Of a stretch of 52,673 nucleotides of DNA, positions 12,056-50,112 are shown in pieces. The position numbers and the translations under genes were made by a program. Every line of letters starts with the position of its first letter. The stretch's first letter is position 1. The notes beneath the pieces were generated by a model. That model ran no database searches. It saw nothing but the letters and a program-made list of their open reading frames with translations, and was not told where the DNA came from. This stretch comes from Ilumatobacteraceae bacterium (lineage in GTDB: Bacteria; Actinomycetota; Acidimicrobiia; Acidimicrobiales; Ilumatobacteraceae): contig JAWLEC010000001.1 in assembly GCA_041686315.1 (NCBI GenBank), positions 1-52,673 on the forward strand. Reading direction: 5' to 3'.

Positions 12056-14482
12056 TCATCCCGGCTCGAGTTCCCGCTCCGACACCGGCTCGGAAGGCGA
12101 CTCCGACACCGGCTCGGCGAGAACGTCGGCTGCCCACCTCAACAGATCGACGGCCTGTTCGAGCGAGAGTCCCGAACCCTCCCGGACGGCGTACTCGAGT
12201 TCCTGCTCGGTCAACAACCGTCGGAGACGTTCGTCGGTGGCCTCGCGAAGCGACAACACCCGTTCGAAGCCGCCCTGTTCGAGCTCTCCGCTCAACGCCC
12301 GCAGCGCTGCCAGCATCGACGCCGCTTCGCGCGGGTGCGTGCGTACCATCGGTCGATAGGCGAACTCGAGGAAGTTGACCGTGGCCGTCCGCATGCCGGC
12401 CGACAGCATGATGTCGCAGGCATCGGCGAGGCTGCGCAGTTGCGCCGCATCGTCGCGGGCCGCCTCGTGCAGATGCGCGATGCCCAGGAGTGCGTATCCG
12501 GCCGCCGACGGACGCTTGATGGCGACCGAGAGGTCCGCGACCTCACGAGCCATGTCGAACGTCTCCGGCGCACCCGGTGTGGCGATCATCCGGTTGACGA
12601 GCGCCGTGATCGTGTGCACGGCACCGACGTCTCGAGCCATCGACACGCCCCGGTCCCCGATTGCCGCCGCCGCGGGCTCGTCGTCGGCAATCGCGTGCAC
12701 GATGCCGAGTACCCCGTAGAGGCGGGACGTCTCCGACGGGTCGGCGTCGAGGGCGCTCACCGTCTTGCGGAGGTGCTCGTCGGCCTCCTCGAGTTTGCCG
12801 CTGAAGGCGAGACGGAGTGCGAGCCGTGCGCCGGCGTAGGCCGGATAGGGCGACCCGTGCTCCTCGGCGATGCCGATCGCCTTGCGTGCCGCGGCCTCCG
12901 ACTCGTCGTTCCTGCCGATCAGCCAGTCGGCGCTGGCGAGCCAGCCCAGCACCCTCGTCCGCAGTTCGGGCGACACCTCGGGGACGTCGCAGCGCTCCAA
13001 CCAGTCGCGTGCTTCGCGCCCCATCGACCGGGTGGTCCACATGTCGGTGAGCCGGAGCGCCAACTCCGCTGCCTCGTCCGGATGGTGTTCGAGCAGCCAG
13101 ACGAAGGCGATGCGAGCGTCGTCCAACCAGCGGACCGCCAGGTCGATGTTCGCCCGTGCCGTCGCGGGATCCCGGTCGTCGATCGGCGAGGGAAGCTCGT
13201 GAAGCACCCAACGCGCCAGACGCCCGCGGACGGCGTCTCCCCGCTCGCCGAGGCGTTCGGTGCAGAACTCGCGCACGGGCGCCAGCAGCCGGAACTCGTC
13301 CTCGTCACGCATCACCAGCGAGCGGCTGCACAGCTCGTCGAGCACGTCGATGGCGTCGAACTCGTCCAGCCCGCACACGGCTGCAGCGGCGCGCCAGGTG
13401 AAGGCTCCCTGGAACACCGACAACGAGTCCAAGACCTCCGCGTCACCCGCATCGAGGAGATCGACGCTCCACCCGATGGCGTGACGCAACGTCCGATGGC
13501 GTCCGACACCGTCGCGCGAGCGCAGCAGAGCGAGCGCCTCGTCGAGATGGCCGAGCACGTCCTCGGGCGACAGCGTCCGGATCCGCGCCGCAGCCAGTTC
13601 GATCGCCAGTGGAAGGCCGTCGAGGCGCCGGCAGATCGCCGTCACCGTCGCGTGATCGGCGGCCGTCAGCCGGAAGCCGGGGTCGGCGTCCCGGGCCCGC
13701 TCCACGAACAGCCTGACCGCAGGAGCCGACGACTCGACATCGGGCTCCGGCATCGGAGTCGCCGAGCCCGACGGGCCGGTCGGGTGTCGGCCACTGTCGA
13801 GGGGTGCCAGGAGCACCACGTCCTCGATCTCGAGGCCCAGATGGCGCTGGGACGTGCACAAGATGGCCGACCGGATGTCGCTGTCGACCACAGCGCCGAG
13901 CGCATCGGCCGTCGCCTCCAGCAGGTGCTCGCAGTTGTCGAGCAGCACCAGCATCCGCCGCGTCGACAGTGCCGCTCGGAGTTCGTCCACCGGCATCGCC
14001 CCACCCTCGACCGTCAGGGCCACTCCGGTCACGATCGCCGCCACGAGCCGGTCGGGCTCGTCCACAGCGGCGAGGTCGACGAACCACACCCCGTCGGGGA
14101 ACGAGGAACGGAGGCGCTGCGCGACGTGCAGCGACAGGCGCGTCTTGCCGACGCCGCCGGGCCCGACCAGCGTCACCAGAGGTCGGCGCTCGACCAGCTC
14201 GGCGACGTCGCGCAGTTCGACGTCACGGCCGATGAGGCCTTCCGACACCGCCGGTAGCCAGCCGAGATCCACGTTCTCGGTGCGGAGCTCGGGGAACTCC
14301 GTGGGCAGTCCGTCGGCGACGAGTTGCAGCAGGCGCTCGGGTTGGTGCAGGCCACGCAGTCGGTGCACGCCGACGTCTCGGAAGTGCACGTCGGGATGGT
14401 CGGACACGATGTCGGCGAGCACGCCGCTGACGAGGACCTGGCCGCCGTGTCCCGCGGCCGCGATGCGGGCGCAACGATTCAT
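12056..14482 (-). CDS. STAND-type NTPase (NB-ARC/AAA + helical-repeat C-terminus) with only the tail of a class III cyclase domain
   Basis: ORF 12056..14638. I place the start at Met53 (CAT 14480-14482). Walker A is GPGGVGKT and the Walker B-like motif is MLVLLDNCEH, followed by long TPR-like repeats. The first ~40 aa (NRCARIAAAGHGGQVLVS..HRLRGL) are the last strands of a nucleotidyl cyclase domain. Confidence 0.75.
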   Translation of the reverse strand: MNRCARIAAAGHGGQVLVSGVLADIVSDHPDVHFRDVGVHRLRGLHQPERLLQLVADGLPTEFPELRTENVDLGWLPAVSEGLIGRDVELRDVAELVERRPLVTLVGPGGVGKTRLSLHVAQRLRSSFPDGVWFVDLAAVDEPDRLVAAIVTGVALTVEGGAMPVDELRAALSTRRMLVLLDNCEHLLEATADALGAVVDSDIRSAILCTSQRHLGLEIEDVVLLAPLDSGRHPTGPSGSATPMPEPDVESSAPAVRLFVERARDADPGFRLTAADHATVTAICRRLDGLPLAIELAAARIRTLSPEDVLGHLDEALALLRSRDGVGRHRTLRHAIGWSVDLLDAGDAEVLDSLSVFQGAFTWRAAAAVCGLDEFDAIDVLDELCSRSLVMRDEDEFRLLAPVREFCTERLGERGDAVRGRLARWVLHELPSPIDDRDPATARANIDLAVRWLDDARIAFVWLLEHHPDEAAELALRLTDMWTTRSMGREARDWLERCDVPEVSPELRTRVLGWLASADWLIGRNDESEAAARKAIGIAEEHGSPYPAYAGARLALRLAFSGKLEEADEHLRKTVSALDADPSETSRLYGVLGIVHAIADDEPAAAAIGDRGVSMARDVGAVHTITALVNRMIATPGAPETFDMAREVADLSVAIKRPSAAGYALLGIAHLHEAARDDAAQLRSLADACDIMLSAGMRTATVNFLEFAYRPMVRTHPREAASMLAALRALSGELEQGGFERVLSLREATDERLRRLLTEQELEYAVREGSGLSLEQAVDLLRWAADVLAEPVSESPSEPVSERELEPG

Positions 14483-14580
14483 CGGCGGACCAACAGGTCG
14501 CCCGCTCGCTGCTCCACCATGCCCCGGTGGGCGCCGATGCGGACGGCGAGCGGCTCCACCTCCGGTCTGCCCAGGTCGGC
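14479..14580 (-). pseudogene. out-of-frame remnant of the class III cyclase domain belonging to the STAND gene
   Basis: An alternative minus frame reads ADLGRPEVEPLAVRIGAHRGMVEQRAGDLLVRR*. Adding one G in TTGGTCC (~14488-14493) would give ...GDLLGPPMNRCARIAAAGHGGQVLVS, a canonical cyclase core. Nothing cyclase-like lies further upstream. Confidence 0.6.
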
Positions 14581-14611
14581 GGGGGCGCAACTGGGCCCAC
14601 TCGATGCGACG

Positions 14612-14983
14612 ATGCGAGACCTGATCTTCGGGTTCCACGATGCACCCGTGTACCGGCAGCTGGCGTGGGAGCGTCCGGCAGATCTCGCCGATCGGCTGTG
14701 GACGGTGCTCACGTCGCTCGACGCTCGACCGTTCCCCGCCACGTGGAAGCTGATCGAGGAGTACGGCGCCGGCGCCTACCTCGGCCTGGAGGAGACCTCC
14801 GGACCGATGTTCTGCAGCGAGCTCGTCGCCTTCACCTACCAGGGAGTGGGGCTGCTCGACGACCCCCCGCCGGCGAACGCCTACAGCCCGACCGACTTCT
14901 CCTCGACGTCGACCAGCTCGCTACGTGTTGCGCCGGTGGTCGGCGAATTCGCCGTCGACGTGGCGATCGCCGCCCCGTCCTGA
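14612..14983 (+). CDS. C-terminal fragment of a YiiX-like permuted papain-fold (C92-like) protein
   Basis: 123-aa ORF from ATG 14612. YLGLEETSGPMFCSELVAFTYQGVG resembles the Cys-containing C-terminal half of YiiX/DUF830 proteins. The N-terminal half with the His motif is missing. Confidence 0.4.
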   Translation: MRDLIFGFHDAPVYRQLAWERPADLADRLWTVLTSLDARPFPATWKLIEEYGAGAYLGLEETSGPMFCSELVAFTYQGVGLLDDPPPANAYSPTDFSSTSTSSLRVAPVVGEFAVDVAIAAPS

Positions 14984-21932: not shown

Positions 21933-23090
21933 GTGACCGGCGTGGTCAGCGCCCGCGTCCCCCTCTGGCGGGACGTGAGGGTGCTCAAGTGGGCACTGCA
22001 GTTCGCCGTCGTCGGGCTCGTCGCTGCACTGCTGGTGTGGCTCTACGGCAACTACGTCGAGAACACCGCCGAGCAGAACATCCCGACAGATCTCGGGTTC
22101 CTCGACAACCCGGCCAACTTCCAGATCACCGGCAACCCGCTCTCCCAGAACGCTCCCGTCCGGGACGCGCTCTACGAAGGCCTGCTGAACACCTTGCGCA
22201 TCTCGGTGGTCGGCGTCGTCGCCGCCACGTTGCTCGGCACGATCATCGGCATCGCCCGGCTCTCGAAGAACTGGCTGGTCAGCAAGCTGGCCGCTGTGTA
22301 CGTGGAGGCGGTCCGCAACGTGCCGCTGGCACTGTTCCTCGTGGCCGGGCTCCTGGTGGTGGTGCTCGGCGTCTTCCCGACCATCCAGGAGGCCTGGAAT
22401 CTCGGCGGCCTGATGATCGTCTCCAATCGCGGTGTCGCGGTGCCCTGGTTCGACGGCGCCGGTTACGGGCTGTTGATGTTCGCGCTCGTGGGCGTCGCCG
22501 CCGGGCTGGCCGTCGCCCGCTGGCGCAGGTCGGTGTCGGATCGCACCGGAGCCCTGGCTCGGAGCGGGCTGTGGGCCGGCGCCGCTCTCCTGCTCGTGAT
22601 GACGATCGGATGGTTCGCGTTCGGCTACTCGTGGACGCTGCCCGAACTCGACGGCCGCCGCACGGTGGGCGGCATGCGGGTCGACCCGTCGTTCTTCGCG
22701 CTCTTCTTCGCGCTCGTGATCTACACGGCGAGCCACATCGCCGAGATCGTGCGGGGGTCGATCCAGGCCGTGCCCCGGGGCCAAGGGGAAGCTGCCGACG
22801 CCGTGGCGCTCAGCGGGTTCCAGCGGATGTGGTACGTGGTGCTCCCGCAGGCGTTCCGCATCGCCATCCCGCCGATCGGCAACCAGTACCTCAACCTGAT
22901 CAAGAACTCGTCGCTCGGTGCGGCGATCGGCTACTACGACATCACGCTCGTCGCCCAGACCACCGTGGGCAACGGGTCACCCGCGGTGCCGGTGTTCACC
23001 CTGACCATGCTGTTGTACATCTCCATCTCACTCGTGACGTCGGTGATCGTGAACTACGCCAACCGTCGGATGGCACTGGTGGAGCGATGA
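21933..23090 (+). CDS. amino-acid ABC transporter permease (AapQ/BztB-like)
   Basis: 385 aa, multi-TM, with the EAA-type loop [25 protein letters not shown]. Confidence 0.9.
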
Positions 23091-24343
23091 AGGGTCCGAC
23101 GATGAGCCGGCAGCCGGACTCCCACGGCCGCCCGAACGCCAGGGTGTGGCTGCGCCGCAACCTGTTCCGCACGCCGCTCGACGGTGTTCTCACCGTCGTG
23201 TTCGGCGCGATCAGCATCTGGCTGCTCTACAAGACGCTGTCGTTCATCTTCGTCACCGGCCGGTGGGACATCATCCGCGTCAACCTGCGCCTGCTGATGA
23301 TCGGCCGCTTCCCCGAAGTCCACGTGCTCCGGATCGCCGTGACCATGGTGACCCTGGCCGGATGGGTCGGTCTGCTGGCCGGGTTCGTGCGCGGCCGACA
23401 GGTGCGCAGCGGGAAGGTTCCGGCCGACGATCGCTTCACGCTCGGCCGCGCCGCCGACATCGCCGAGCGGCTCTGGTTGCCCGCGGTCGTGATCCTGCTG
23501 CTGCTGATGCTGTCGGGTACTCCCGGGCCGTGGATCACCGCCGGTCTGGGTGTCGTCGCTGCGGTGGCGGGCCGACTCATCGGCCCCGCACTGGGCCGGC
23601 AGACGTTCGGCACCGTGGCGACTGCGGCGTTGTTCACCGCACTCGGAGCCGTCCCGCTCGTGTTGTACTTCTACGTGGTCACGGCCGTCGGGTTCGACGA
23701 CTGGGGCGGCTTCATGCTGAACATCTTCCTCGCCGTCTGCTCGATCGTGCTGTGCTTCCCGCTGGGCGTGCTGCTGGCGTTGGGCCGCCGGTCGGCGCTG
23801 CCGTTGGTGCGGGTCGTGTCGACGGCCTACATCGAGCTCGTCCGCGGCGCCCCGTTGTTCGTGCTGCTGCTGCTCGCCAACGTGGCCCTCGGTTTCTTCG
23901 TCCCCGACACGCTGGCGCCGGCCACCTCCACCCGCGCGATCGTGGTGTTCACGCTGTTCACCGCGGCGTACATGGCCGAGATCATTCGCGGCGGGCTGCA
24001 GTCGGTGCCGCGCGGGCAGTTCGAGGCGGCGAAGGCGGTCGGGCTCAGCCCGGTTCGCCAGACCGGGTACATCGTGCTGCCGCAGGCGTTGCGCAACGTG
24101 ATCCCGGCGCAGATCGGCCAGCTGATCAGCCTGTTCAAGGACACCACGCTGGCCGGCATCGCAATGGGGCTGTTCGAGATGCTCAACGTGTCGCAGGCGA
24201 TCACCGCCCAGGAGGACTTCCGGGGTCAGGGCCTGATCGGCGAGACACTCACGTTCACGGCGCTGCTGTTCTGGACGGTGGCCTACACGATGAGCCGCGA
24301 GAGCCAGCGGCTGGAGAAGCGACTGGGAGTAGGAGTCAGATGA
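23087..24343 (+). CDS. amino-acid ABC transporter permease (AapM/BztC-like)
   Basis: ATG 23087 overlaps the upstream stop (ATGA). It has the loop [25 protein letters not shown]. Confidence 0.9.
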
Positions 24344-25137
24344 CCGACCACACGGATCCGGACACGCACTCGGTGTACGCCGACGCCACGGCGATGAGGG
24401 GCTCGGGCTCGGCGATGATCGAGCTGGAGCACGTCGACAAGTTCTTCGGCGACTTCCAGGCGCTGGCCGACATCAACTTGAAGGTGGCGAGCCAGGAGGT
24501 CGTGGTGGTGATCGGCCCGTCGGGATCGGGCAAGTCCACCATGATCCGCTGCATCAACCGGCTCGAGGAGCACGACGCCGGACGCATCGTGGTCGACGGC
24601 ATCGAGCTGTCGAACGACATCCGCAACATCACCGAGATCCGCCGCGAGACCGGCATGGTGTTCCAGAGCTTCAACCTGTTCCCGCATCTCAGCGTGCTCG
24701 ACAACATCACGTTGGCGCCACGCAAGGTGCGTAAGTTGCCGAAGGCCACGGCGGACGAGCTGGGGATGGCGCTGCTCGAGCAGGTGCAGATCCCCGAGCA
24801 GGCGAAGAAGTACCCGGGGCAGCTGTCGGGTGGGCAGCAGCAGCGGGTGGCGATCGCCCGGGCGTTGGCGATGAAGCCGAAGGTGATGCTGTTCGACGAG
24901 CCCACGTCGGCGCTCGACCCGGAGATGATCGGCGAGGTGCTCGACACGATGAAGGAGCTGGCCAGGTCGGGTATGACGATGATCGTGGTCACCCACGAGA
25001 TGGGGTTCGCCCGCGAGGTCGCCGACCGGGTGGTGTTCATGTCCGACGGCCAGATCGTGGAGGTCGGCACCCCCGAGCACTTCTTCGAGAACCCGCGGGA
25101 GGACCGCACCAAGCTGTTCCTCTCCCAGATCCTGTAG
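24340..25137 (+). CDS. amino-acid ABC transporter ATP-binding protein
   Basis: ATG 24340 overlaps the upstream stop. Walker A is GPSGSGKST, the signature is [15 protein letters not shown] and Walker B is [12 protein letters not shown]. Confidence 0.95.
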
Positions 25138-25153
25138 GAATCTCCACCACCAC

Positions 25154-25197
25154 GGCGATGAGCAAGACCCCGCCATCGGGTGGTGTCGCTCATCGCC
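25154..25197 (+). terminator. hairpin after the ABC importer operon
   Basis: GGCGATGAGC-(24 nt)-GCTCATCGCC, starting 17 nt after the stop at 25137. The arms resemble those of the 50113/50175 duplicated element. Confidence 0.35.
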
Positions 25198-26208: not shown

Positions 26209-27990
26209 TCAGACGGTCGGCTGGCTCTTCGCCCAGGCGGCGGCGAGCGCTGCGTAGCGCCCGCCGAGAGCCACGAGCTCGTCATGGCTGCCGAGTTCGG
26301 CGAGCCGCCCGGCGTCGATCACGCCGATGCGATCGGCGCGGCGGATGGTCGACAGGCGATGGGCCACCACGATCGTGGTGCGTCCGCCCATCAACGACTC
26401 GAGTGCGTGCTCCACGATCGCCTCCGTGCCGGGGTCGAGGTTGCTGGTGGCCTCGTCGAGCACCAGCACCGCCGGATCCACGAGGGCCGCCCGCGCCAGC
26501 GACACGAGCTGCCGCTCCCCCGCCGACAGCCGTGACCCGCGCTCGCGCACCTCGGTGTGGATCCCCTCCTCGAACGCCTCGAACCGCTCGAGTGCGCCGA
26601 TCGCGGCGAACGCCGCCCGGATGTCGTCGTCGGTGGCGTCGACACGGGCGATGCGCACGTTGTCGGCGATCGTGCCGCCGAAGAGGAACCCCTCCTGCGG
26701 CACCACCACCACCCGGCGGCGCAACGACGCCAGTGTGGCGTCGCGCAGGTCGACACCTCCGAAGGAGATGCTGCCCGACGTGGGGTCGTAGAGACGGGCC
26801 ATCAGCTTGGCCAGCGTCGACTTGCCGGCGCCGGTGGGGCCCACCAGCGCCAACCGCTCGCCGTCGGCGACGGTGATCGACACGTCGCGCAGCACCGGCG
26901 TCTCGGTGGCCGGATAGCGGAAGCCGACGTCGTCGACCACCATCTCGCCGGACCGCGGCAGGTCGAGGTCACCGTCACGGATGTCGGGCTCGGTGTCGAG
27001 GATCTGGAACAGCTTGTTCAGCGAGGCGGCCGACGACTGCACCGTGTTGTAGAGCTGCGAGAGCTGCTGGACGGGTTCGAACAGCTGCGCCAGCAGCAGC
27101 ACCGTGGCGATGATGGTACCGATCGACACGTCGCCACGGGTGAAGAGCCAGCCGCCCACGCCCACGACGAGCGCCGTGGCGCACACGCCCGCCGCTTCGA
27201 CGAGACCGAAGTACCAGGTGGAGACGCGCACGCTGTGGACGTGCGAGTCGTAGAGATCACGGTTCGACGCGACGAAGCGGCGGGTCTGCTCGGGCTCACG
27301 GCCGTAGGCCTGGATCACCCGGACACCGGCGATGCCCTCCTGCAGCGACGACAGGTTCTGCCCCACCCGCTCGCGCACCTCGAGGTAGGCGGCGTTCGAG
27401 TCACGCTGGAACTTGCGGGAGGCGACGATGATCACCGGCATCACGAGCAGCCCCACGAGCGCCAGCTGCCACGACATGGCGAACAGCAGCACCAGGGCGA
27501 ACACGATCAGCAGGGCGGCGGCGATGAACTGCAGCAGCCCCCACTGCACCAGCTCGGACATCGACTCGATGTCGGCGGTCATGCGGGCCACCAACACGCC
27601 CGACTTGTTGCGGTCGAAGAAGGCCAGCGACTGGCGCTGGATGTGGTCGAACACCCGGACCCGCAGGGCCCGGAGGAATCCCTCGCCGGCGCGGTTCACG
27701 AGCACGAACTGCTGGCGCGAGGCGAGGTAGGCCACGGCGACCACCACGACGTAGGCGATCACGGCGTTGCGCAACGTCGCCGAGTCGCGAGGTTCGATGC
27801 CCTCGTCCACGCCGTAACGCACGATCACCGGCCCGAGCAGCAGGCCGAGCGTGGACACGGCGGTGAAGGCGAGGGCGCCGGCGATCGTCTTCTTGAACGG
27901 CAGGGCCAGGCGGCCCGCCCGGCGCAGCACCTGCTTGGCCTCGTCGGTGTCGAGGCGGTCCCCCTCCTCCACGGCGCTCATGCGCTGCAT
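26209..27990 (-). CDS. ABC exporter, fused permease/ATPase (heterodimer partner B)
   Basis: 593 aa with 6 TM plus an NBD. Walker A is GPTGAGKST, the signature is LSAGERQLVSLARA and Walker B is VLVLDEATS. Confidence 0.9.
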   Translation of the reverse strand: MQRMSAVEEGDRLDTDEAKQVLRRAGRLALPFKKTIAGALAFTAVSTLGLLLGPVIVRYGVDEGIEPRDSATLRNAVIAYVVVVAVAYLASRQQFVLVNRAGEGFLRALRVRVFDHIQRQSLAFFDRNKSGVLVARMTADIESMSELVQWGLLQFIAAALLIVFALVLLFAMSWQLALVGLLVMPVIIVASRKFQRDSNAAYLEVRERVGQNLSSLQEGIAGVRVIQAYGREPEQTRRFVASNRDLYDSHVHSVRVSTWYFGLVEAAGVCATALVVGVGGWLFTRGDVSIGTIIATVLLLAQLFEPVQQLSQLYNTVQSSAASLNKLFQILDTEPDIRDGDLDLPRSGEMVVDDVGFRYPATETPVLRDVSITVADGERLALVGPTGAGKSTLAKLMARLYDPTSGSISFGGVDLRDATLASLRRRVVVVPQEGFLFGGTIADNVRIARVDATDDDIRAAFAAIGALERFEAFEEGIHTEVRERGSRLSAGERQLVSLARAALVDPAVLVLDEATSNLDPGTEAIVEHALESLMGGRTTIVVAHRLSTIRRADRIGVIDAGRLAELGSHDELVALGGRYAALAAAWAKSQPTV

Positions 27991-29798
27991 CAGTCACCAC
28001 CTGCCCCGGGCACCGGTGCAGTCACGCTGCGCGACGGCGCACCATCGGGGTCCGGTGGCCCGTCGGCATCCTCGACGGCCATCGCCGCCAGCACGTCGCG
28101 GTAGCGCGGTTCGGTGTCGAGCAGCTCCTCGTGCGGTCCGGAGGCCACGACGAGTCCACCGTCGAGCAACACGACCGTGTCGGCCAGCGCAATGGTGCCG
28201 GGCCGGTGGGCGATGACGATCGTGGTGCGCCCGTCCATCACGGTGGCCATCGCCGCGCGGATCTCGTGCTCCTTCGACGGGTCGACCGCCGACGTCGCAT
28301 CGTCGAGCACCAGGATGCGCGGGTCGGCGATGATCGCCCGGGCGATGGCGATCCGCTGGCGCTGCCCGCCCGACAGCGAGTAGCCGCGTTCGCCGAGCAT
28401 CGTGTCGTAGGCGTCGGGAAGGCCCATGACGAAGTCGTGGGCGCCGGCGAGCCTGGCCGCGCGCTCGATCATGTCGCGGTCGGCATCGGGACACGCGAAC
28501 GCGATGTTGGCGGCCACCGAGTCGTGGAACAGCAGCGTGTCCTCGAACACCACCCCCACGGCCCGGCGCAGTTCGTGCAGGCTGAGATCGCGCACGTCGA
28601 CGCCGTCGATCGCCACGCTGCCGGCATCGACGTCGTAGAACCGCAGCAGCAGACGGGCCACCGTCGACTTGCCCGAGCCGGTGGCACCGACCAGCGCCAC
28701 CGACTGGCCGGCGACCAGGTCGAGGTCGAATCCGTCGAGCACCGGAGCCGCGGTGTCGTATCCGAACCGGACACCGTCGAAGCGGACGGCGCCGACCTCG
28801 CCGCCGGTGGGCAGCGGTGTCGGACGGGCCGGGCTGGCCACCTGGGGCACCGTGTCGAGCACCTCGTTCACCCGCTCGAGTGCCGCGCCGGCGCGCTGCG
28901 CCCAGGCGATCGTCATGCCGATCATCCGCAGCGGCCACACGAGCAGCGCCACGAAGAAGTTGAACTGCACGAGCTGGCCGAGCGTGAGGTCACCGTCGAT
29001 CACGCGCATGCCGCCGAGGCCGAGTACGGCGATCAACCCGAGCTGCGGCAGCAGTTCGATGGCCGGCAGGAACTTCGCCCGGATGCGGGCGGCGCCGATC
29101 GAGACGCTACGGATGTCGTCGGCCTCGGTGCGCAGCCGGTCGGCCATCACCTGTTCGGCGCCGAACCCCTTGACCACGCGGACACCCCCCACCGACTCCT
29201 CCACCACGGTGGCGAGTTCCGCCTGCTCGGCCTGCACCTGCAGCACGGCTCCGTGGATGGAGTTGGAGAAGCGGCGGCCGGCGACGTTCACGAGCGGCAG
29301 CGGCGCCAGCGCGACGAGGGCCAGCAGCGGATCGGTGACGAACAGGATGACGGCGACGGTGAGGATCATCGCCAGGTTCGACAGCGTGACCGGGATCATC
29401 ACCACGAACATCTGGATCTGGTTGAGGTCGCTCGAGGAGCGGCTCATCAACTGTCCCGTCTGCGCTCGGTCGTGGTAACCGATGTGCAACGACATGATGT
29501 GCCCGAAGAGCTGCTCGCGCAGGCGCGTCTCGGTCCAACGGGCTTCGCGGAAGGCGTAGAACCGGCGCAGCGCCGTGAACGTGCCGGCCATCACGCCGGC
29601 GACGGCGATCAGCAGCGCCCACAGCCAGAGCAGCTCGCCCTGTTCGATCCCCCGGTCGATCCCGTAGCGGACGAGGATCGGCACCGACACCTTGCCCGCC
29701 ATCCACACCAGCCCGACGATCGTGCCGATGGCCAGGTTGCGACGCTGCGCACGCAGCGTGGCGCGCAGCAGCGCCCAGCGCGAGCGGGCGTCAGACAT
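27990..29798 (-). CDS. ABC exporter, fused permease/ATPase (heterodimer partner A)
   Basis: 602 aa. Walker A is GATGSGKST, the signature is LSGGQRQRIAIARA and Walker B is ILVLDDATS. The stop/start TGATG overlaps the downstream partner by 1 nt. Confidence 0.9.
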   Translation of the reverse strand: MSDARSRWALLRATLRAQRRNLAIGTIVGLVWMAGKVSVPILVRYGIDRGIEQGELLWLWALLIAVAGVMAGTFTALRRFYAFREARWTETRLREQLFGHIMSLHIGYHDRAQTGQLMSRSSSDLNQIQMFVVMIPVTLSNLAMILTVAVILFVTDPLLALVALAPLPLVNVAGRRFSNSIHGAVLQVQAEQAELATVVEESVGGVRVVKGFGAEQVMADRLRTEADDIRSVSIGAARIRAKFLPAIELLPQLGLIAVLGLGGMRVIDGDLTLGQLVQFNFFVALLVWPLRMIGMTIAWAQRAGAALERVNEVLDTVPQVASPARPTPLPTGGEVGAVRFDGVRFGYDTAAPVLDGFDLDLVAGQSVALVGATGSGKSTVARLLLRFYDVDAGSVAIDGVDVRDLSLHELRRAVGVVFEDTLLFHDSVAANIAFACPDADRDMIERAARLAGAHDFVMGLPDAYDTMLGERGYSLSGGQRQRIAIARAIIADPRILVLDDATSAVDPSKEHEIRAAMATVMDGRTTIVIAHRPGTIALADTVVLLDGGLVVASGPHEELLDTEPRYRDVLAAMAVEDADGPPDPDGAPSRSVTAPVPGAGGD

Positions 29799-29801: not shown

Positions 29802-30167
29802 TCACGTGGTCGCAGCCCCCGGTCTCAGGAGTTCGGCGACCCGTTCCTTGGGCCGGCCGATGATCGCCGTGTCGGTGGTGACCACCACCGGGCGTTGCAG
29901 GAGCTGCTTGTGCTTCACCAGCACGTCGACGATCTGGTCGACGGTGGCGACGTCGTCGTCGGTGAGGCCCAGCTTCTTCCACATGCTGTCGCGCCGGACG
30001 AGGTCGGTCGGGTCGCCGTCGAGCTTGGCGATGATCGCGCGGAGCGTGGCGGCGTCGGGCGGGTCCTTGATGTACTTCACCACGTCGACCTCGACGCCCA
30101 GCTCCTCGGCAATGCGCACGGCATTGGCGGAAGAGTTTCAATGCGGGTTGTGGTAGATCGTGGCCAC
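29802..30167 (-). CDS. ArsC-family (glutaredoxin-type arsenate reductase/Spx fold) protein with in-frame TGA at the catalytic Cys position (candidate selenocysteine; alternatively a pseudogene)
   Basis: The ORF track lists only 29802..30119. The same frame continues upstream as (GTG 30167) V-A-T-I-Y-H-N-P-H-TGA(30140-30138)-N-S-S-A-N-A-V-R-I-A-E-E-L. Compare E. coli ArsC TIYHNPACGTSRNTLEMIR. Downstream matches are LVRRDSMWKKLGL, LLQRPVVV and IGRP. An alternative ATG lies at 30203. Confidence 0.6.
30102..30135 (-). promoter_or_regulatory. SECIS-like stem-loop starting 2 nt 3' of the in-frame UGA
   Basis: mRNA sense: CUCUUC-cgc-CAAUGC-cgugc-GCAUUG-cc-GAGGAG. Two 6-bp helices (one G-U pair) are separated by a small internal loop. 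The 5-nt apical loop contains G and begins 18 nt after the UGA. Confidence 0.4.
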
Positions 30168-30266
30168 GGGCGTGCCACCGGCGCTGTCGTCGTGCGTCCC
30201 CATGGCCGCCAGGTTATGTCGCCGTCACTCACTGCCTCGTATCGATTGCGACACCCGTCGCGCAAG

Positions 30267-41342: not shown

Positions 41343-42110
41343 ATGGACTACGACACCAACATCGCACCTCGCATCCTGATCGCCGTGGACGATCCGGATC
41401 TGCGCCGGATCAGTGTGGCCGGGTTGCGGTCGGCGGGATTCAGCGTCAGCGCCCCCACCGACGGCGATGCGGCGATCATGTTGGCCGAGTCCTTCTCCCC
41501 CGACGTCCTCATCGTGTGCTCACGTCTGCGGGCCCCCGACGGTCGCCCGCTCTACGAACGACTCCGCGACTCGAGCGAGCAGTACCTCCTCTGCATCACC
41601 GACGAGGGAGCCCACCGGATCCGCGCCGCCGTACTCCACTCCGGTGCCGACGACGCCGTCTCCGTGCCGGTGTCGGCCGAGGAGCTGGCCGCCCGGTGCC
41701 ATGCACTCCTGCGCCGGCCGCGCCAGATGCAGGGTCGGGTGGATGCGGTGTTCGCCTCCACCCTGGTGCTCGGACCGCTGTCGATCGACCTCGGTCGCCG
41801 TGAGGTCCGCGTCGACGACGAGGAAGTGGCCACCACCCGGATCGAGTTCTCACTGCTCGAACAGCTGTGTCGGCGGCCGACCGAGGTGTGCACCCGCGAG
41901 GATCTCCTCGACGCCGTGTGGGGGCCGAAGTGGGTCGGCGACCACCACGTGGTCGACGTCCACCTGTCGAACCTGCGCCGCAAGCTCGACAAGGCGGCGC
42001 CCGAGCTGAAGGTGATCCACACCGTACGCGGCGTGGGTTTCCGTCTCGCCAACGACGTCACCGACCAGCTCGACATCTCCCAGCCGTTCGGCCTCGCCGC
42101 CGTCGTCTAG
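41343..42110 (+). CDS. OmpR/PhoB-family response regulator with degenerate receiver (no phospho-acceptor Asp)
   Basis: 255 aa with a receiver plus winged-helix domain (TRIEFSLLEQLC...VVDVHLSNLRRKL...IHTVRGVGFRL). The position aligned to PhoB Asp53 is Cys59 (TGC 41517-41519), and the conserved Lys is Val. Confidence 0.8.
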   Translation: MDYDTNIAPRILIAVDDPDLRRISVAGLRSAGFSVSAPTDGDAAIMLAESFSPDVLIVCSRLRAPDGRPLYERLRDSSEQYLLCITDEGAHRIRAAVLHSGADDAVSVPVSAEELAARCHALLRRPRQMQGRVDAVFASTLVLGPLSIDLGRREVRVDDEEVATTRIEFSLLEQLCRRPTEVCTREDLLDAVWGPKWVGDHHVVDVHLSNLRRKLDKAAPELKVIHTVRGVGFRLANDVTDQLDISQPFGLAAVV

Positions 42111-42148
42111 CAGGCGTCGAGGAGCGTCTCCTCCGACCCGCTCACGCC

Positions 42149-42197
42149 GAACGCGTGAACAGTATGCGGGCGCTCGGCGCACACTGTTCACGCGTTC
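42149..42197. repeat. 49-bp palindromic element, family B copy 2
   Basis: gAACGCGTGAACAGTaTGCG-ggcgctcgg-CGCACACTGTTCACGCGTTc, between convergent genes. Confidence 0.85.
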
Positions 42198-42198
42198 G

Positions 42199-43947
42199 TC
42201 AGTCGTAGCGGGCGCTGATCCACCATCGACGGTGCTCGGCGACCACGAGATAGCCGCACTGGTCGTCGGTGACGACCTGGAACCGCGCCAGGCGTCGATG
42301 CCGCTCGGGCTCCCACCACCGCTCCTCCACCGGCCAGGGGCCCGCCCACCCCACCACCGGCCGCGGCCGGCCACGACGCCACCCCGATGCGGCGTCACCC
42401 GACAGCAGGTGCAGTGTGGCCGGAGGCGCCGACACGGCGCCGCGCCCGGTCACGGTGAGCGATTCGCCGTGCTCGTCGAGCAGTTCGGCCGGAACGGGTT
42501 CGGCGAGCACCGTGGCCGGTGACGGCGACGGCAGCGAACCCGGCCACGGCCCCGCGGGCCCGCTGCCGGTGCCGGCGTGGGACACCGCCCGGTGCTCGAG
42601 GTCGACCGTGGTGGCCGGCACCCACCGGTACCGGTCGGCCGGCAGGCGGCCACCGCGCCACACCGGAACGGTCACCGCATCGTCGGAGGTGAGCGTGGTG
42701 AGCCGGGCGATGGTCCGCGCAGCCCGCCGGTCGGCGTCGGACTGCCCGCCCCACAGACCCAGCTGGACACCTTCGTCGGCACGCACCTCGTCGGGGCTGA
42801 GCCGGATCAGCGAGATCCCGCCCGTGAGTTGGTGGTCGCTGCCCGGCGGGAGCCCGATCCAGGCGTCGAGTTGCCAACGGATCCGTTCGACCATCGCCGC
42901 TGCGGTGAGCCCACCCGAGCGGTACCACGACCGTTCGGAGCGTTCCCCGTGTTCGGATTCGAGCAGCACCACCAACCGGGTGCACACCCGGCCGTCGGCC
43001 GCCAGCGTGCCGGCCAGCTCGTCGGCCAGTTGCTTGGCCACGAACACCACCGCGCTCGACTGGGCCGCAGGATCGTCGAGCACCTGATCGAGCCGTCGCT
43101 CGGGGGCCGGGTCGGTGGTGCCCGACGGGCGGACGTCGGCTCCCGACGCCAGGCGGTGCGCATGCACGCCCGCATGGCCGAAACGGCCGAGGACATCGGC
43201 GGCGTCGAGCGCCGCGAGGTGGCCGAGGCGGCGGAGGCCGAGCCGGGTGAACAGCTCGACCAGATCGGGATCGGCCTCGCCCAGGGTCTGCAACCAGCCG
43301 ATCGGCAACGGAGCGCAGAAAGCCGGCGAACCGGTGGGGTCGACCACCACCGGTTCGCTACGACGCACCGCCAACCGGGCCGCCACGCTCGATGCGAACC
43401 GCCCGTCGGCCACGCCCACACCCACGTCCACCTTCATCCCGGCATCGGCGGCACCGGCTGCATCGTCTGCAGCGCCTGCGCCGGCCACAGCGCCGGCACC
43501 GTCTGCAGTGTCTGCATCGGCTGCACCAGCGTCGCCGGCACCGGCGCTCGCGACGGCCGCCGCCGAAGCAGCAGTCGGCGCCAGCCGCTCGGCGAGGGAG
43601 CGATCGCCGCCGAAGTACCGCGAGGGGCCACGCGCCGACAGCGTGATCCAGCCGGGTTCGACGACATCGAGCCGAGGTGAGATCTCGGCGACGGCGCGTA
43701 CCACCGGTTCGAATCGGCCGGCGTCACGGTCGGGGTCGTGGTCGACGAGCCGGATGTGCGGGCAACGTCGCTGCGCCTGCCGGCGCCGCTGGCCGATCAC
43801 CACACCCTCGGCGGCGGCCGCAGGTGTGCGCGCCACCACCCGATTGGCGCGCATCACTGCGCCTGGCACGTCCGGACGCAACCCCGCGGCCACTGCCGGC
43901 CAGTCGGGGAACCACACCGTGACGATCCGCTCGGGCTGCTCGTTCAT
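42199..43947 (-). CDS. imuB: ImuB (Y-family polymerase-like mutasome subunit)
   Basis: Start at Met52 of ORF 42199..44100 (MNEQPERIVTVWFPDWP is the typical ImuB N-terminus). It lies 5 nt downstream of imuA'. Confidence 0.85.
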   Translation of the reverse strand: MNEQPERIVTVWFPDWPAVAAGLRPDVPGAVMRANRVVARTPAAAAEGVVIGQRRRQAQRRCPHIRLVDHDPDRDAGRFEPVVRAVAEISPRLDVVEPGWITLSARGPSRYFGGDRSLAERLAPTAASAAAVASAGAGDAGAADADTADGAGAVAGAGAADDAAGAADAGMKVDVGVGVADGRFASSVAARLAVRRSEPVVVDPTGSPAFCAPLPIGWLQTLGEADPDLVELFTRLGLRRLGHLAALDAADVLGRFGHAGVHAHRLASGADVRPSGTTDPAPERRLDQVLDDPAAQSSAVVFVAKQLADELAGTLAADGRVCTRLVVLLESEHGERSERSWYRSGGLTAAAMVERIRWQLDAWIGLPPGSDHQLTGGISLIRLSPDEVRADEGVQLGLWGGQSDADRRAARTIARLTTLTSDDAVTVPVWRGGRLPADRYRWVPATTVDLEHRAVSHAGTGSGPAGPWPGSLPSPSPATVLAEPVPAELLDEHGESLTVTGRGAVSAPPATLHLLSGDAASGWRRGRPRPVVGWAGPWPVEERWWEPERHRRLARFQVVTDDQCGYLVVAEHRRWWISARYD

Positions 43948-43952
43948 GTCAC

Positions 43953-44633
43953 TCAGGCGGGGACGGCGAACTCGCCGCGCCGCACACCCGGTGACCGGCG
44001 CCCGGCAGCCGACACGTGTACGGCCCGGCGGCGCAGGTGTCCGCAGCCGTCGCCGATGCCCTCCCACGGCCGGCCGTCGGCGTGGAGTTCGCCGTCGCAC
44101 GGCAGGATGCCCGGCTCACCCAGCACCACGACCACCGCCCCCTGCTGCTGGATGCGGGTGACGAGCTTGCGCACCATGGCGGAGGGCAACCCGGTCGGCA
44201 CACGCACCAGCAACACGTCGAATCCGTCGGCTGCTGCAGCGACCGCCTCGATCCACCGGCGAGGATCGCCACCGGTGTCGACGGCGACCACGCGCTCCAA
44301 CGGCACCCCGAGTTCACTGGCGGCGTCGAGTCCGAGTGTGGGGAGGTCGACCACGGCCACCCACCCCCCGGCCGCCACGGTGGGGGCGAGCAGCGAGCAG
44401 GCGAACGACGTGGCCGCCGACCCGGCGCACGACAGCACGCGTCCACGCACGAGCCCGCCGTCGGGGAACAGGTGGGCGACGGCGTCGGGGACGGGCAGGA
44501 TGCGCTCACGGGCGAGCGTGAGCGGCGCCACCCGCTCCCCCAGTGCCGCGAGCGCCTCCGAGAGACCAGGACGGGCGGGCGTGTCGGACGGATCGGACGT
44601 GGGGATCGGACCGGAGGTGAGTGCGAGGCTCAT
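43953..44633 (-). CDS. imuA: ImuA' (RecA-fold mutasome accessory protein)
   Basis: 226 aa. Its position directly upstream of imuB with an SOS box supports the call, and the sequence pattern (LFPDGGLVRGRV...GGWVAVVD) resembles mycobacterial ImuA'. Confidence 0.75.
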   Translation of the reverse strand: MSLALTSGPIPTSDPSDTPARPGLSEALAALGERVAPLTLARERILPVPDAVAHLFPDGGLVRGRVLSCAGSAATSFACSLLAPTVAAGGWVAVVDLPTLGLDAASELGVPLERVVAVDTGGDPRRWIEAVAAAADGFDVLLVRVPTGLPSAMVRKLVTRIQQQGAVVVVLGEPGILPCDGELHADGRPWEGIGDGCGHLRRRAVHVSAAGRRSPGVRRGEFAVPA

Positions 44634-44645
44634 CCCACCATGGTA

Positions 44646-44660
44646 TCGAACATGTGTTCG
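44646..44660. promoter_or_regulatory. LexA (SOS) box upstream of imuA'-imuB
   Basis: TCGAACatgtGTTCG, 13 nt upstream of the imuA' start. It shares the extended GTATCGAACA flank with the dnaE2 box. Confidence 0.7.
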
Positions 44661-44735
44661 GTACCACCGAGCGCAGAGACTTCCGGCGTCGGTCGAATTC
44701 GGGTGGCGAATCCTGCCCTGGTCGGGCGTCGCGGG

Positions 44736-45194
44736 TCAGCCCTGTTTGGCGTTCCAGCGTTCGCGGCCGGCGCGGCTGCGTTCGAGGATGTGCGCCGGGA
44801 CCCGTTTGGCGGCTTCGGAGAGCCCCGAATCGCCACCGTCGTCGCCACCACCGCCGGTGTCGACCGGCTCCTCGGGTTGGAGGTCCTCGAACGACGGGGG
44901 CGTCACACCCGGCTTCCAGTACTGGTACATGTACCGGATGATGTCGGACAGCCCCTCGGCGTCGTGGCCCTTCTCGAGGTCGACCGTGATGATGTTGGCG
45001 AACACGTGCACCGCATCGACCTGACCGGTGGCGAACAGGCGGCGGGCCAGCTCGTCGGACGGGCCATCGCCGTAGGCGTCGGCGAGCGAGTCGTAGTGCT
45101 CGTGGCCCTGGCCCGACAGCGTGCGGTTGATCTCGAAGCGGACGACACCTCGTGTCGAACTCGGCTTCTCGGTGACGGCGACCAGCTGACCCAT
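44736..45194 (-). CDS. hypothetical protein, possibly Nfu_N-like domain plus acidic/Gly tail
   Basis: 152 aa. VVRFEINRTL...DELARRLFATGQVDAVHVFANIITVDLEKG resembles the Nfu/NifU N-terminal domain pattern (weak call from memory). Confidence 0.5.
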   Translation of the reverse strand: MGQLVAVTEKPSSTRGVVRFEINRTLSGQGHEHYDSLADAYGDGPSDELARRLFATGQVDAVHVFANIITVDLEKGHDAEGLSDIIRYMYQYWKPGVTPPSFEDLQPEEPVDTGGGGDDGGDSGLSEAAKRVPAHILERSRAGRERWNAKQG

Positions 45195-45305: not shown

Positions 45306-46697
45306 TCAGATGAGGGCGTCGGCGAGCACGGCGGGGAACTCGTCGGGGGTGGTGGACAGCACCGTGGCACCCAGTTCGGCGAGTGCGGCGGCGTGGTCGT
45401 GGTCGTGGCTGGGCGTGCCCTCGTCGCTGAGCGCCAGCAGCACCACCACCGTGACACCGCCGGCCACCAGCTCGGCCACCCGTCGGCGCATGAGGTCGGC
45501 GTTGCCGCCCTCGAAGAGGTCGCTCACCAGGAACAGCACGCTCTCGCGCGGCCGTTCGATCAGCGACTGGCAGTAGCCGAGTGCCGCTGCGATGTCGGTG
45601 CCTCCGCCGAGTTGCACCCCGAACAGCACCTCGACCGGATCGTGGAGATACGCCGTCAGGTCGGTCACCGAGGTGTCGAATGCCACGAACGACGTCCGCA
45701 AGGCCGGCAACTGGGCGAGCACGCCCCCGAACAGCGAGGCGTACACGACGCTGTCGGCCATCGACCCCGACTGGTCGACGGCGATCACCACGTCACGGGC
45801 CAGGCTGCGCTGGCGCCGGCCATGGCCCACCAGCCGCTCGGGGATCACGGTGCGGTGCTCGGGGATCCAGTGCCGGAGGTTGGCGGTGATCGTGGTGGGC
45901 CAGTCGATGTCGCCGGGACGGGGCCGGCGGGTGCGCGCCGACCGGGCCAGCGCCCCGCGCACGGCCTGGCGGGTGTGGTCGGTGAGCCGGGCCTCGAGGT
46001 CGGCGAGCACCCTGGCGATCACCTGGCGGGCGGTGGCCCGGGTCTCGTCGGGAAGATGCCGGTTGAGTTCCACCAGCAGGGTGACCAGGTGCACGTCGGG
46101 TTCCACCGCCTGCAGCAGCTCGGGTTCGAGCAGCAACTGACGGAGGTCGAGCCGGTCGACGGCGTCGCGCTGGAGGATCTGCACCATCGGTGTCGGGAAG
46201 TAGCGGCGGATGTCGCCGAGCCAGCGCACCACCCCGGGTCGCGACCTCCCGAGCCCACCGGATCGGCTGCCCGCCCCACGGCGCACCGACTCACGGTCGT
46301 AGAGCGCGCCCAGCGCCGCATCGATCCGCACGTCGTCGCCGGTCAGCCTCCCCCCGATGCGGTCGCCGCCACCGGGTCGTGAATCGTTGCGCCGCCCGGC
46401 ACCCCCACCGTCGCCCGGACCGCCGTCACCCTCGGATCGTCCGCTTCCGTCGGCACCATCACCGGCGCCATCACCAGCGCCGTCACCGCCGGCAGCGCCA
46501 CCTTCACCGGCATCCTCTCCTCCGGCAGGGCCGTCACCACCGCCCGCACCCGGCTCGGCGCCTGTCGCGTCGTTCCCGGCGCCGCTGTCGAGTGGGTCGT
46601 CGGTGTCGAGTTCGGCCGCCGCACCCAGCACCAGGCGCCACCGGCGCAGCCGTTCACCCTCCGACACGCGCAGCGCCGTCGGTTCCACCGGGCTCAT
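45306..46697 (-). CDS. VWA-domain protein with Gly/Asp/Ala-rich N-terminal region
   Basis: 463 aa. The MIDAS residues are DQSGSM, GGGTD and SDLFEGG. The start overlaps the upstream stop (ATGA). Confidence 0.85.
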   Translation of the reverse strand: MSPVEPTALRVSEGERLRRWRLVLGAAAELDTDDPLDSGAGNDATGAEPGAGGGDGPAGGEDAGEGGAAGGDGAGDGAGDGADGSGRSEGDGGPGDGGGAGRRNDSRPGGGDRIGGRLTGDDVRIDAALGALYDRESVRRGAGSRSGGLGRSRPGVVRWLGDIRRYFPTPMVQILQRDAVDRLDLRQLLLEPELLQAVEPDVHLVTLLVELNRHLPDETRATARQVIARVLADLEARLTDHTRQAVRGALARSARTRRPRPGDIDWPTTITANLRHWIPEHRTVIPERLVGHGRRQRSLARDVVIAVDQSGSMADSVVYASLFGGVLAQLPALRTSFVAFDTSVTDLTAYLHDPVEVLFGVQLGGGTDIAAALGYCQSLIERPRESVLFLVSDLFEGGNADLMRRRVAELVAGGVTVVVLLALSDEGTPSHDHDHAAALAELGATVLSTTPDEFPAVLADALI

Positions 46698-48967: not shown

Positions 48968-48977
48968 GGCGCGTCCA

Positions 48978-50111
48978 TCACGAGTCGAGGACGCGGCAGG
49001 CCTCGTAGAAGTCGCTCCATCCCGCACGGTCGCGGGCCACCGTCTCGAGGTACTCCCGCCAGGCGACGGCGTCGTGCACCGGATCGCTCACCACGGCGCC
49101 GACGATGCCCGCGGCGACGTCGCCGGCCGCCAGCTCGCCGTCACCGAAGTGTGCTGCGAGCGCCAGGCCGTTGGTGATCACCGAGATCGCCTCGGCCGTG
49201 GAGAGCGTGCCGGTGGGCACCTTGAGGCTGCGCTGGTCGTCGGCAGTGACACCCGAGCGCAGCTCGCGGAACACCGTGACGACCCGGCGGATCTCGTCGG
49301 CGGCGGCAGGCACCTCGGGCAACGACAGCGCCACGCCGAGTTCGGCGACGCGGCGGCTGACGATGTCGATCTCCTCGTCGATGGTGGCCGGCAGCGGCAG
49401 CACGACGGTGTTGAAGCGGCGGCGGAGCGCACTCGACAGGTCGTTCACGCCACGGTCGCGGTCGTTGGCGGTGGCGATCACGTTGAAGCCGCGGATCGCC
49501 GCGATCTCGGTGTCGAGTTCGGGTACCGGCAGCACCTTCTCCGACAGCACGGTGACGAGTACGTCCTGCACCTCGGGCGGCATCCGGGTGAGCTCCTCCA
49601 CGCGCACGAGGGCGCCGCGCTGCATCCCCCGGTACACGGGGCCTGGGACGAGCGCCTCGATGCTCGGCCCCTCGGCGAGGAGGCGGGCGTAGTTCCACCC
49701 GTACCGCAGCGTCTCCTCGGTGGTGCCGGCGGTGCCCTGCACGAGCAGCGTGGAGTCGCCGCTGATGGCGGCGGCGAGGTGCTCGCTCACCCAGGTCTTG
49801 GCGGTGCCCGGCACGCCCAGCAGCAGCAGGGCGCGGTCGGTGGCGAGGGTGGCCACGGCGATCTCCACCAGCCGTTGCCGGCCCACGTACTTCGGCACGA
49901 TCACGGTGCCGTCGCTCAGCTCACCGCCGAGCAGGTACCGCACGACCGCCCACGGTGACAGCTTCCAGCCGGGCGGCCGCTCGCGGTCGTCGAGGGCGTC
50001 GAGCGCCGCCAGCTCGTGGGCGTACTGGTGCTCGGCGTGTGGTCGCAGGACGTCGCCGGGCACCGGCGGCAGGACGGTCATCGCCATGACGTTACCGAGG
50101 GCGTGTCGCAC
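48978..50111 (-). CDS. AAA+ ATPase, MoxR/AAA_5-like
   Basis: 377 aa. Walker A is GVPGTAKT, the Walker B-like motif is ALVRVEELTR and the sensor-1 region is FNVIATANDRD. The start is GTG 50111, with alternatives ATG 50087 and 50081. Confidence 0.85.
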   Translation of the reverse strand: MRHALGNVMAMTVLPPVPGDVLRPHAEHQYAHELAALDALDDRERPPGWKLSPWAVVRYLLGGELSDGTVIVPKYVGRQRLVEIAVATLATDRALLLLGVPGTAKTWVSEHLAAAISGDSTLLVQGTAGTTEETLRYGWNYARLLAEGPSIEALVPGPVYRGMQRGALVRVEELTRMPPEVQDVLVTVLSEKVLPVPELDTEIAAIRGFNVIATANDRDRGVNDLSSALRRRFNTVVLPLPATIDEEIDIVSRRVAELGVALSLPEVPAAADEIRRVVTVFRELRSGVTADDQRSLKVPTGTLSTAEAISVITNGLALAAHFGDGELAAGDVAAGIVGAVVSDPVHDAVAWREYLETVARDRAGWSDFYEACRVLDS

Positions 50112-50112
50112 C

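Follow-up and report, generated by a model that had tools for sequence, protein, structure and literature searches.

Does an in-frame TGA at the catalytic position of an ArsC-family reductase gene end its translation, or does it encode selenocysteine (Sec)? The question is raised by a gene on the minus strand of a 52,673-nucleotide stretch of DNA from an Ilumatobacteraceae bacterium (assembly GCA_041686315.1, contig JAWLEC010000001.1, positions 1 to 52,673), referred to below as the window. Ilumatobacteraceae are abundant actinobacteria of soil, freshwater and marine environments. A preliminary description of the locus had proposed a candidate selenoprotein whose TGA is followed by a hairpin resembling a selenocysteine insertion sequence (SECIS). 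The comparison with relatives presented here supports that proposal and leads us to conclude that 30203..29802 is very probably an ArsC-family selenoprotein gene, in which UGA 30140-30138 is decoded as Sec at the nucleophile position. Feature coordinates are collected in Table 1.

Read on the minus strand, the frame consists of RRHNLAAMGTHDDSAGGTPVATIYHNPH, the internal stop, NSSANAVRIAEELGVEVD...GAATT and a final stop (TGA 29804-29802), and the segment around the internal TGA reads ATIYHNPH-TGA-NSSANAVRIAEELG, just as had been described. With the internal TGA taken as Sec (U), the translation of the gene becomes MGTHDDSAGGTPVATIYHNPH-U-NSSANAVRIAEELG...GAATT. The mechanical list of open reading frames (ORFs) contains just a 105-residue ORF, 29802..30119, which begins at residue 29 of this read-through protein. 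In profile searches, for which C was placed at the U position and the N-terminal extension was kept, residues 17-124 of the read-through protein matched the Pfam ArsC family (PF03960) with 51 bits against a cut-off of 24. The listed ORF thus starts inside the ArsC fold, as the preliminary description had it, and the gene as a whole is assigned to the ArsC family, with a predicted glutaredoxin-type arsenate-reductase fold. Its N-terminal segment is longer than that of most homologues by a 10-residue insertion (GTHDDSAGGTP), so that Sec is residue 22 in the window protein and usually residue 12; the N-terminus with this insertion is common to the window gene and its two nearest relatives, L081 and L086.

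The TGA falls on the catalytic nucleophile of this fold. A phmmer search of PDB sequences aligned residues 15-128 with R773 ArsC (1I9D and 1JZW; E=1.8e-16) and placed the TGA codon (U22) on Cys12 of these structures, which bears out the earlier claim that the TGA stands at the ArsC catalytic Cys. In the same comparison R70, R104 and R117 align with Arg60, Arg94 and Arg107 of 1I9D, which we take to be the oxyanion-binding triad of the R773 ArsC literature, and all three residues are invariant in our alignment of homologues (A1). The window protein therefore resembles R773 ArsC in its active-site strand (TIYHNP), in the position of its nucleophile (Cys12 = Sec22) and in the Arg triad, but it differs in having Sec for Cys and NSS, not GTS, after the nucleophile, and its gene lies outside any ars operon.

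To place this codon in an evolutionary context, 80 loci with homologues of the window gene were fetched from species-representative genomes, all of them metagenome-assembled genomes (MAGs) from Ilumatobacteraceae, Acidimicrobiales, Acidimicrobiia and other Actinomycetota, with one labelled Isosphaeraceae. At the column of the window TGA, 73 of these 80 loci carry TGA (Sec forms) and 7 carry TGC (Cys forms). Metagenome contigs enlarged the set to 76 TGA and 11 TGC genes in the same column of a gapless alignment: the window gene aligns without gaps to 86 homologous genes, and the stretch from the TIYHN strand through GRPK is gapless in all of them. Among the genes aligned, the Cys codon TGC is the sole alternative to TGA at the nucleophile column. 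The motif that follows the Sec codon, N-S-S, corresponds to UxxS, and codon +3 is Ser in 73 of 73 Sec forms. Pairwise nucleotide identity among the TGA genes ranges from 67 to 100%, with no frameshifts or additional stops in the TGA-bearing relatives. Over the 8 codons before the TGA, conservation at codon positions 1, 2 and 3 is 0.93, 0.88 and 0.79, while farther upstream it is ~0.4 at all three; 3' of the TGA the corresponding identities are 0.90, 0.92 and 0.78. These patterns indicate an intact frame, with purifying selection before the TGA as well as after it.

Two further observations concern the use of TGA itself. Within the window TGA is the terminator of 29 of 30 genes, the terminal stop of arsC included; its role as an ordinary stop excludes codon reassignment, and no other in-frame TGA with a coding signature on both sides was found in the 52.7 kb. 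In addition, the base 5' of the UGA (30141 in the window, minus strand) is U in 70 of 76 Sec forms, by way of the rare codons CAT and AAT, and in 1 of 11 Cys forms, a bias suggesting that the 5' context of the Sec codon is under selection.

The RNA downstream of the UGA provides the second main line of evidence. The preliminary description had pointed to a 34-nt hairpin 2 nt past the UGA; this hairpin is present with its CGUGC loop, and its upper 6-bp stem is conserved, whereas the lower stem is not. Folded alone, the 34-nt hairpin has a free energy of -13.7 kcal/mol (z=-3.3); a surrounding segment of 66 nt does not stand out (z=-0.28). Because folding energy alone cannot discriminate in DNA of 70% G+C, the comparative evidence is decisive. 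A per-codon analysis of 73 TGA genes (the window gene and 72 genome loci) against 7 TGC genes found codons +5 to +9 (Asn-Ala-Val-Arg/Ser-Ile) to be frozen at the nucleotide level in Sec forms, with no synonymous variation: Asn is AAT in 70 of 71 cases, Ala is GCC in 73 of 73, Val is GTG in 73 of 73, Arg is CGC in 55 of 55 and Ile is ATT in 71 of 72. Elsewhere in the gene the Ala, Val and Arg codons have 1-2 bits of synonymous entropy, and Ile and Asn codons are nearly always ATC and AAC, so that AAT and ATT are rare. The Cys forms encode identical amino acids through AAC and ATC (7/7), with variable Ala and Val codons.

The frozen codons coincide with a helix. RNAalifold applied to the 73 TGA sequences returned a single consensus helix, C-AAUGC / GCAUU-G, around the loop CGUG(C/A). 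In L063 a change of AAU to AAC is accompanied by AUU to GUU, a compensatory replacement of U-A by C-G at the price of an Ile-to-Val substitution; in L014 and L040 the stem has G-U in place of A-U, and L010 alone has one A·C mismatch there. The core stem is present in the minimum free energy (MFE) fold of 61 of 73 Sec forms and 0 of 7 Cys forms, with a mean MFE of -16.7 kcal/mol in both classes, so that a specific structure is kept and not general stability. Over the full set, 75 of 76 TGA genes and 0 of 11 TGC genes have an intact 5-bp core, and the loop of the 76 TGA genes is CGUGC (57) or CGUGA (19). Overall, these observations indicate that the hairpin core is a Sec-specific element, kept beyond what the encoded protein would need. 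The alignment of orthologues, which had been suggested as a check on the selenoprotein proposal, thus came out in its favour: TGC relatives are without the hairpin and TGA relatives keep it, with fixed rare codons and a compensatory change.

The full 13-bp hairpin was also considered as the conserved unit and rejected, with 77% of it paired across the alignment and a variable lower helix; what is kept is the 6-bp core. The lower stem, CUCUUC/GAGGAG, lies outside the RNAalifold consensus and pairs in ~30-80% of sequences with weak covariation. Across the 76 Sec forms the core plus its extension amounts, at the median, to 11 pairs and -11.1 kcal/mol, and 57 of these forms reach -7.5 kcal/mol or lower.

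Loss of the stem appears to follow loss of Sec. A neighbour-joining tree of codons +15 to +99, a region outside the element, indicates ~5 independent Sec-to-Cys switches, with Sec ancestral in the sample. Four metagenome Cys-form proteins are 78-83% identical to the window protein and closer to it than any genomic Cys form; the stem is lost in all four, in two of them partly (AAT kept, ATT changed to ATC), and this partial loss looks like decay after a Sec-to-Cys switch. Two near-identical Sec relatives retain the TGA, stem and N-terminus of the window gene. Separately, one MAG (MFD02979.bin.1.133) has arsC in the TGA form on each of two contigs (L017:10028 and L021:8408), both times with the SECIS core intact, either as paralogues or as a strain or assembly duplication.

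The geometry of the element agrees with that of bacterial SECIS (bSECIS) elements. In the published consensus, an apical loop of 3-9 nt caps an upper stem of 4-16 bp, one of the first two loop positions is a G, most often with G or U after it, 16-37 nt separate the UGA and the loop, and the MFE is ≤ -7.5 kcal/mol (PMC13188914, Fig. 2A). The window element has a 5-nt loop, C-G-U-G-C, with G at position 2 and then U, on a 6-bp upper stem; the loop begins 17 nt past the UGA, and the -13.7 kcal/mol of the hairpin is below the consensus limit. The likeness to the E. coli fdhF SECIS and to the general model thus comprises a stem-loop within the coding sequence, directly 3' of the UGA, and a small apical loop with an early G then U at 16-37 nt from that codon. 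On the other hand, the window element is without primary-sequence resemblance to fdhF; its conservation is confined to an A/U-rich stem of 6 bp, it lacks a conserved bulged U, and its lower helix is variable. When the core, or a hairpin of the type "TGA plus CGUGM-loop", was sought in other genes across 1.27 Mb of loci, only arsC was found to have it; three further SECIS-motif hits in the same 1.27 Mb were discarded as out-of-frame, G+C-rich noise.

This natural series of Sec and Cys genes (76 versus 11), in which a 17-nt stem-loop is present or absent, offers a sharp definition of a minimal actinobacterial SECIS. It is conceivable, though rather doubtful, that the invariant 15-nt core AAUGCCGUGMGCAUU is a lineage-specific SelB recognition element; if this is true, the core could be used to chart an undescribed Ilumatobacteraceae selenoproteome.

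Selenoprotein forms of ArsC have been catalogued before. A 2005 study of the Sargasso Sea counted an "arsenate reductase UxxS" family of 14 sequences among its new selenoprotein families and showed a predicted SECIS for it (PMC1088965, Table 3); the 2008 Global Ocean Sampling (GOS) analysis listed "ArsC 1, pfam03960, UxxS" with 77 Sec sequences (PMC2398784). Reviews from 2022 and 2026 place UxxS ArsC under COG1393/TIGR00014 (PMC9312934, PMC13188914; example MBT3519430.1), and the selenoprotein form is called functionally uncharacterised in the latter (PMC13188914). We matched the window gene to this family (Zhang, Fomenko, Gladyshev) by its described features. Both have a PF03960/COG1393/TIGR00014-like fold with Sec in place of the N-terminal catalytic Cys, a UxxS motif, a stem-loop right after the UGA with G in a small loop, and widespread Cys homologues. 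On these features the window gene is a predicted member of the UxxS family. Published members come mainly from marine metagenomes without a lineage, whereas the window gene is placed in Ilumatobacteraceae (Acidimicrobiia, Actinomycetota); its lineage differs from the published cases in having Sec as the majority form (73/80), an invariant SECIS core, a probably leaderless start and an operon with ABC (ATP-binding cassette) exporters. The "arsenate reductase-like, UxxC" selenoproteins (NF041106; Spx/ArsC-related; PMC13188914) also belong to the ArsC/Spx superfamily and have an N-terminal Sec, but the motif of the window protein is UxxS and its Arg triad is the one found in true ArsC. TIGR00014 is the NCBIfam family that it matches best, and NF041106 is not among the 7 families matched at E ≤ 0.01.

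Several results weigh against a selenoprotein with arsenate reductase activity. Genes for selA, selB, selD and tRNA-Sec are all missing from the 52.7-kb window and from ~1.27 Mb of same-neighbourhood loci of relatives: ARAGORN found no tRNA-Sec in the window or any fetched locus, tblastn with E. coli SelD and SelA sequences, used as probes only, gave no match in the window or loci, and no sel gene is among the 30 annotated window genes. Genes for the Sec machinery need not be linked to their target genes, and their local absence is uninformative for the genome. Rfam likewise returned no SECIS family in the whole window (gathering threshold) or in 29950-30250 (E ≤ 10). Rfam covers bacterial SECIS elements poorly, and a missing match is expected; others have had the same experience with Rfam on such elements (bioRxiv 10.64898/2026.04.03.716425). 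As to the protein, the TIGR00014 model ("arsenate reductase (glutaredoxin)") gave 102.3 bits against a cut-off of 106.05, and this shortfall of 3.7 bits means that equivalog status, i.e. the same function, is not established for the window protein. No ars genes (arsR, arsB/acr3, arsA/D) are among the 30 annotated window genes. An ars operon context is common for ArsC, not strictly required. Finally, the association of core and codon (Fisher p=2.5e-9, first 80 sequences) is uncorrected for phylogeny, and the tree behind the estimate of ~5 switches was built from 255 nt.

The local absence of sel genes would also suit recoding that is independent of Sec, the alternative that survives best. Here a near-cognate or suppressor tRNA would insert Trp, Cys or Arg at the UGA, and the hairpin would be a read-through stimulator or a ribosome pause, as downstream structures are in other systems where they stimulate read-through of stop codons. 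We regard this as very unlikely. The UGA occupies the position of the catalytic nucleophile, where Cys is the sole sense codon observed, as in classic Cys/Sec pairs. In its geometry the hairpin matches a bSECIS: its 5-nt loop lies 17 nt past the UGA and invariably contains GU. The UxxS form of ArsC is an established selenoprotein family. The Sec machinery also exists in the class Acidimicrobiia: Actinomarinales, another order of this class, have it complete, with ~5 selenoproteins per genome (bioRxiv 10.64898/2026.04.03.716425). In the literature on Ilumatobacter and Acidimicrobiia selenoproteins we found this one 2026 preprint, on Actinomarina, and nothing for Ilumatobacteraceae.

How database entries for this protein begin bears on a further alternative. 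We searched a 5.8-billion-protein collection and examined the 120 closest entries. Full-length close homologues of ~117-125 residues read ..TIYHN(P/T)HCNSS.NAVRIAEELG..., and at least 31 of the 120 are ~102-115 residues long and begin (M/V)RIAEELG, just past the position of the window TGA. Such starts would be real if UGA terminated translation, giving a 21-residue peptide and a separate, truncated ArsC-like protein from GTG 30119, with the hairpin regulating re-initiation; GTG 30119 or an ATG equivalent occurs in many homologues, hence database proteins that start there. This arrangement would, however, divide a single thioredoxin-like ArsC fold, leaving the truncated protein without the nucleophile and the first beta-strand, while the upstream TIYHN is conserved as the ArsC active-site strand, identical in uninterrupted Cys forms, and the M/V start is the Val of the NAVRIAEELG motif, encoded by GTG in 73 of 73. 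We therefore consider true termination more improbable still than Sec-independent recoding, and the short entries appear to be systematic gene-caller truncations of a selenoprotein. In practical terms, the locus is a clean and well-controlled case of a selenoprotein gene systematically truncated by automated annotation. The short entries include P0006, P0013 and P0043, with others among P0055-P0120; one entry, P0098 (183 residues), is a homologue fused to an unrelated upstream reading frame.

The weakest alternative, a recent nonsense mutation (pseudogene) or a sequencing or assembly error that turned TGC into TGA in one copy, would take a single base change and would suit gene callers that annotate only the downstream 105-residue ORF, but it is left with next to no probability, since the same TGA in 73 of 80 independent species-level genomes and in further metagenome contigs, together with a frame conserved as coding on both sides and free of frameshifts or other stops, excludes it, and the nucleotides just 3' of the codon vary less in TGA than in TGC genes, whereas decay would have the reverse effect.

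Having weighed these alternatives against decoding as Sec, we turn to where translation of the selenoprotein begins. In 73 of 75 loci the homologous ATG is preceded, at a distance of 6-8 nt, by a -10-like hexamer, TANNNT, whose first base is at -14 to -12; the hexamer occurs almost nowhere else within 60 nt upstream of the arsC ATG, and a Shine-Dalgarno-like motif precedes arsC in just 3 of the 75. The spacing of the window hexamer to ATG 30203 makes this codon, not GTG 30167, the most likely start. Of the two starts named as plausible in the preliminary description, ATG 30203 thus stands, with its TANNNT 7 nt upstream, and GTG 30167 is rejected because the hexamer is positioned before the ATG. 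Judged from known actinobacterial leaderless promoter architecture, the arsC mRNA is probably leaderless, in which case the transcript would have just 33 nt before the Sec-UGA (63 nt for the window gene). A scan for E. coli-type promoters and terminators found nothing; the TANNNT analysis is more apt for this lineage. A second conserved upstream motif, CAACCGATGAGAGC (in the window CAATCGATACGAGGC, 30234-30248, minus strand), was seen at ~-45 to -31 from the ATG in the closest clade (L001-L040), in the stretch between arsC and a divergently oriented gene of ~150 residues; a -35 region or a regulator site is a possible reading.

Four things can be read from sequence: a conserved and presumably recoded TGA, its pairing with Cys in homologues, a hairpin specific to Sec forms, and an active site whose residues are conserved. 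They can be accommodated in the following scheme, of which we infer SelB binding, leaderless transcription, substrate and reductant. The transcript would begin at ATG 30203, probably without a leader. At UGA codon 22, the ribosome would meet the stem-loop C-AAUGC/CGUGC/GCAUU-G, 12-28 nt downstream, to which SelB·GTP·Sec-tRNA(Sec) would be bound, and SelB would deliver Sec in competition with release factor 2. In the folded protein, the selenolate would lie beside the Arg triad R70/R104/R117 (= R60/R94/R107) and attack an oxyanion substrate, most probably arsenate. A low-molecular-weight thiol, together with a partner of the glutaredoxin or mycoredoxin type, might then restore the selenoenzyme. 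The chemistry is thus most likely that of a glutaredoxin-type ArsC with a selenolate nucleophile.

Table 1. Features of the arsC locus and of its downstream neighbours in the window.
Feature	Position	Strand	Remarks
Coding sequence of the predicted Sec-ArsC	29802..30203	minus	133 codons including the Sec codon, plus terminal TGA 29804-29802
N-terminal coding segment before the Sec codon	30141..30203	minus	starts with ATG 30203-30201
In-frame TGA, predicted to be read as Sec	30138..30140	minus	aligned with catalytic Cys12 of R773 ArsC
Full 34-nt hairpin	30102..30135	minus	lower stem CUCUUC/GAGGAG, GC/GC step and core; begins 2 nt past the UGA
Conserved core of the putative SECIS	30110..30126	minus	5' arm CAAUGC 30126-30121, loop CGUGC 30120-30116, 3' arm GCAUUG 30115-30110
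-10-like hexamer TAACCT (TANNNT)	30211..30216	minus	7 nt upstream of ATG 30203
ABC exporter half-transporter (transmembrane domain and ATPase)	27990..29798	minus	PF00664 and PF00005
Second ABC exporter half-transporter	26209..27990	minus	PF00664 and PF00005; one-base overlap with the first

The neighbourhood of the gene is conserved in both its Sec and Cys forms. Two ABC exporter half-transporters follow arsC on the same strand, the first in 55 loci and the second in 54; upstream lie a DUF4031 gene (50 loci) and a divergent small ORF (46 loci). The ATG of the first exporter is 3 nt past the arsC stop, so that the two are probably co-transcribed, and the second exporter is the probable heterodimer partner of the first. 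The identity of these exporters is generic, with NCBIfam matches of the MsbA/SmdAB/CydDC type that are all below equivalog cut-offs. Since the partners are generic ABC exporters and no ars operon is nearby, arsenate is named above as a presumed substrate. It is conceivable, if rather doubtful, that a leaderless Sec-ArsC and the heterodimeric ABC exporter form a three-gene module, with Sec-ArsC as its redox component, that does not serve arsenic detoxification; the selenol-based reductase would process another oxyanion or a thiol or selenol conjugate, and the ABC pair would export it. The candidate module occurs, without ars genes, in at least 55 Ilumatobacteraceae/Acidimicrobiia genomes. In either case, the conserved exporter pair offers a clue to what the ArsC UxxS family does biochemically.

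With Sec-containing ArsC catalogued since 2005, the window gene adds little conceptually and would not surprise a selenoprotein specialist; its use lies in annotation and as a SECIS test case. What is new, modestly, is a lineage, the Ilumatobacteraceae, with the Sec form as its majority state, where most of the members sampled would decode UGA as Sec; a minimal SECIS core defined by natural Sec/Cys comparison; and the probable leaderless start and conserved ABC-exporter operon.

Several other features of the window were recorded in passing. Two regions of ~2-2.6 kb each (23090-25162 and 42110-44736) have no coding-like ORF by a filter on G+C at third codon positions. At 7464-8651 (minus strand; NF006444, 528 bits) lies a gene for a MoeB-type adenylyltransferase that has a rhodanese domain at its N-terminus; Sec-containing members are known from the MoeB family too, but this copy has no in-frame TGA. 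A large AAA_16/AAA_22 protein is encoded at 12056-14920. A three-gene cluster at 45306-50150 (minus strand) encodes an AAA_5 protein (a MoxR/dynein-like ATPase), a DUF5682 protein (771 bits) and a VWA CoxE-like protein, and is adjoined by a PIN-domain gene at 51022-51516.

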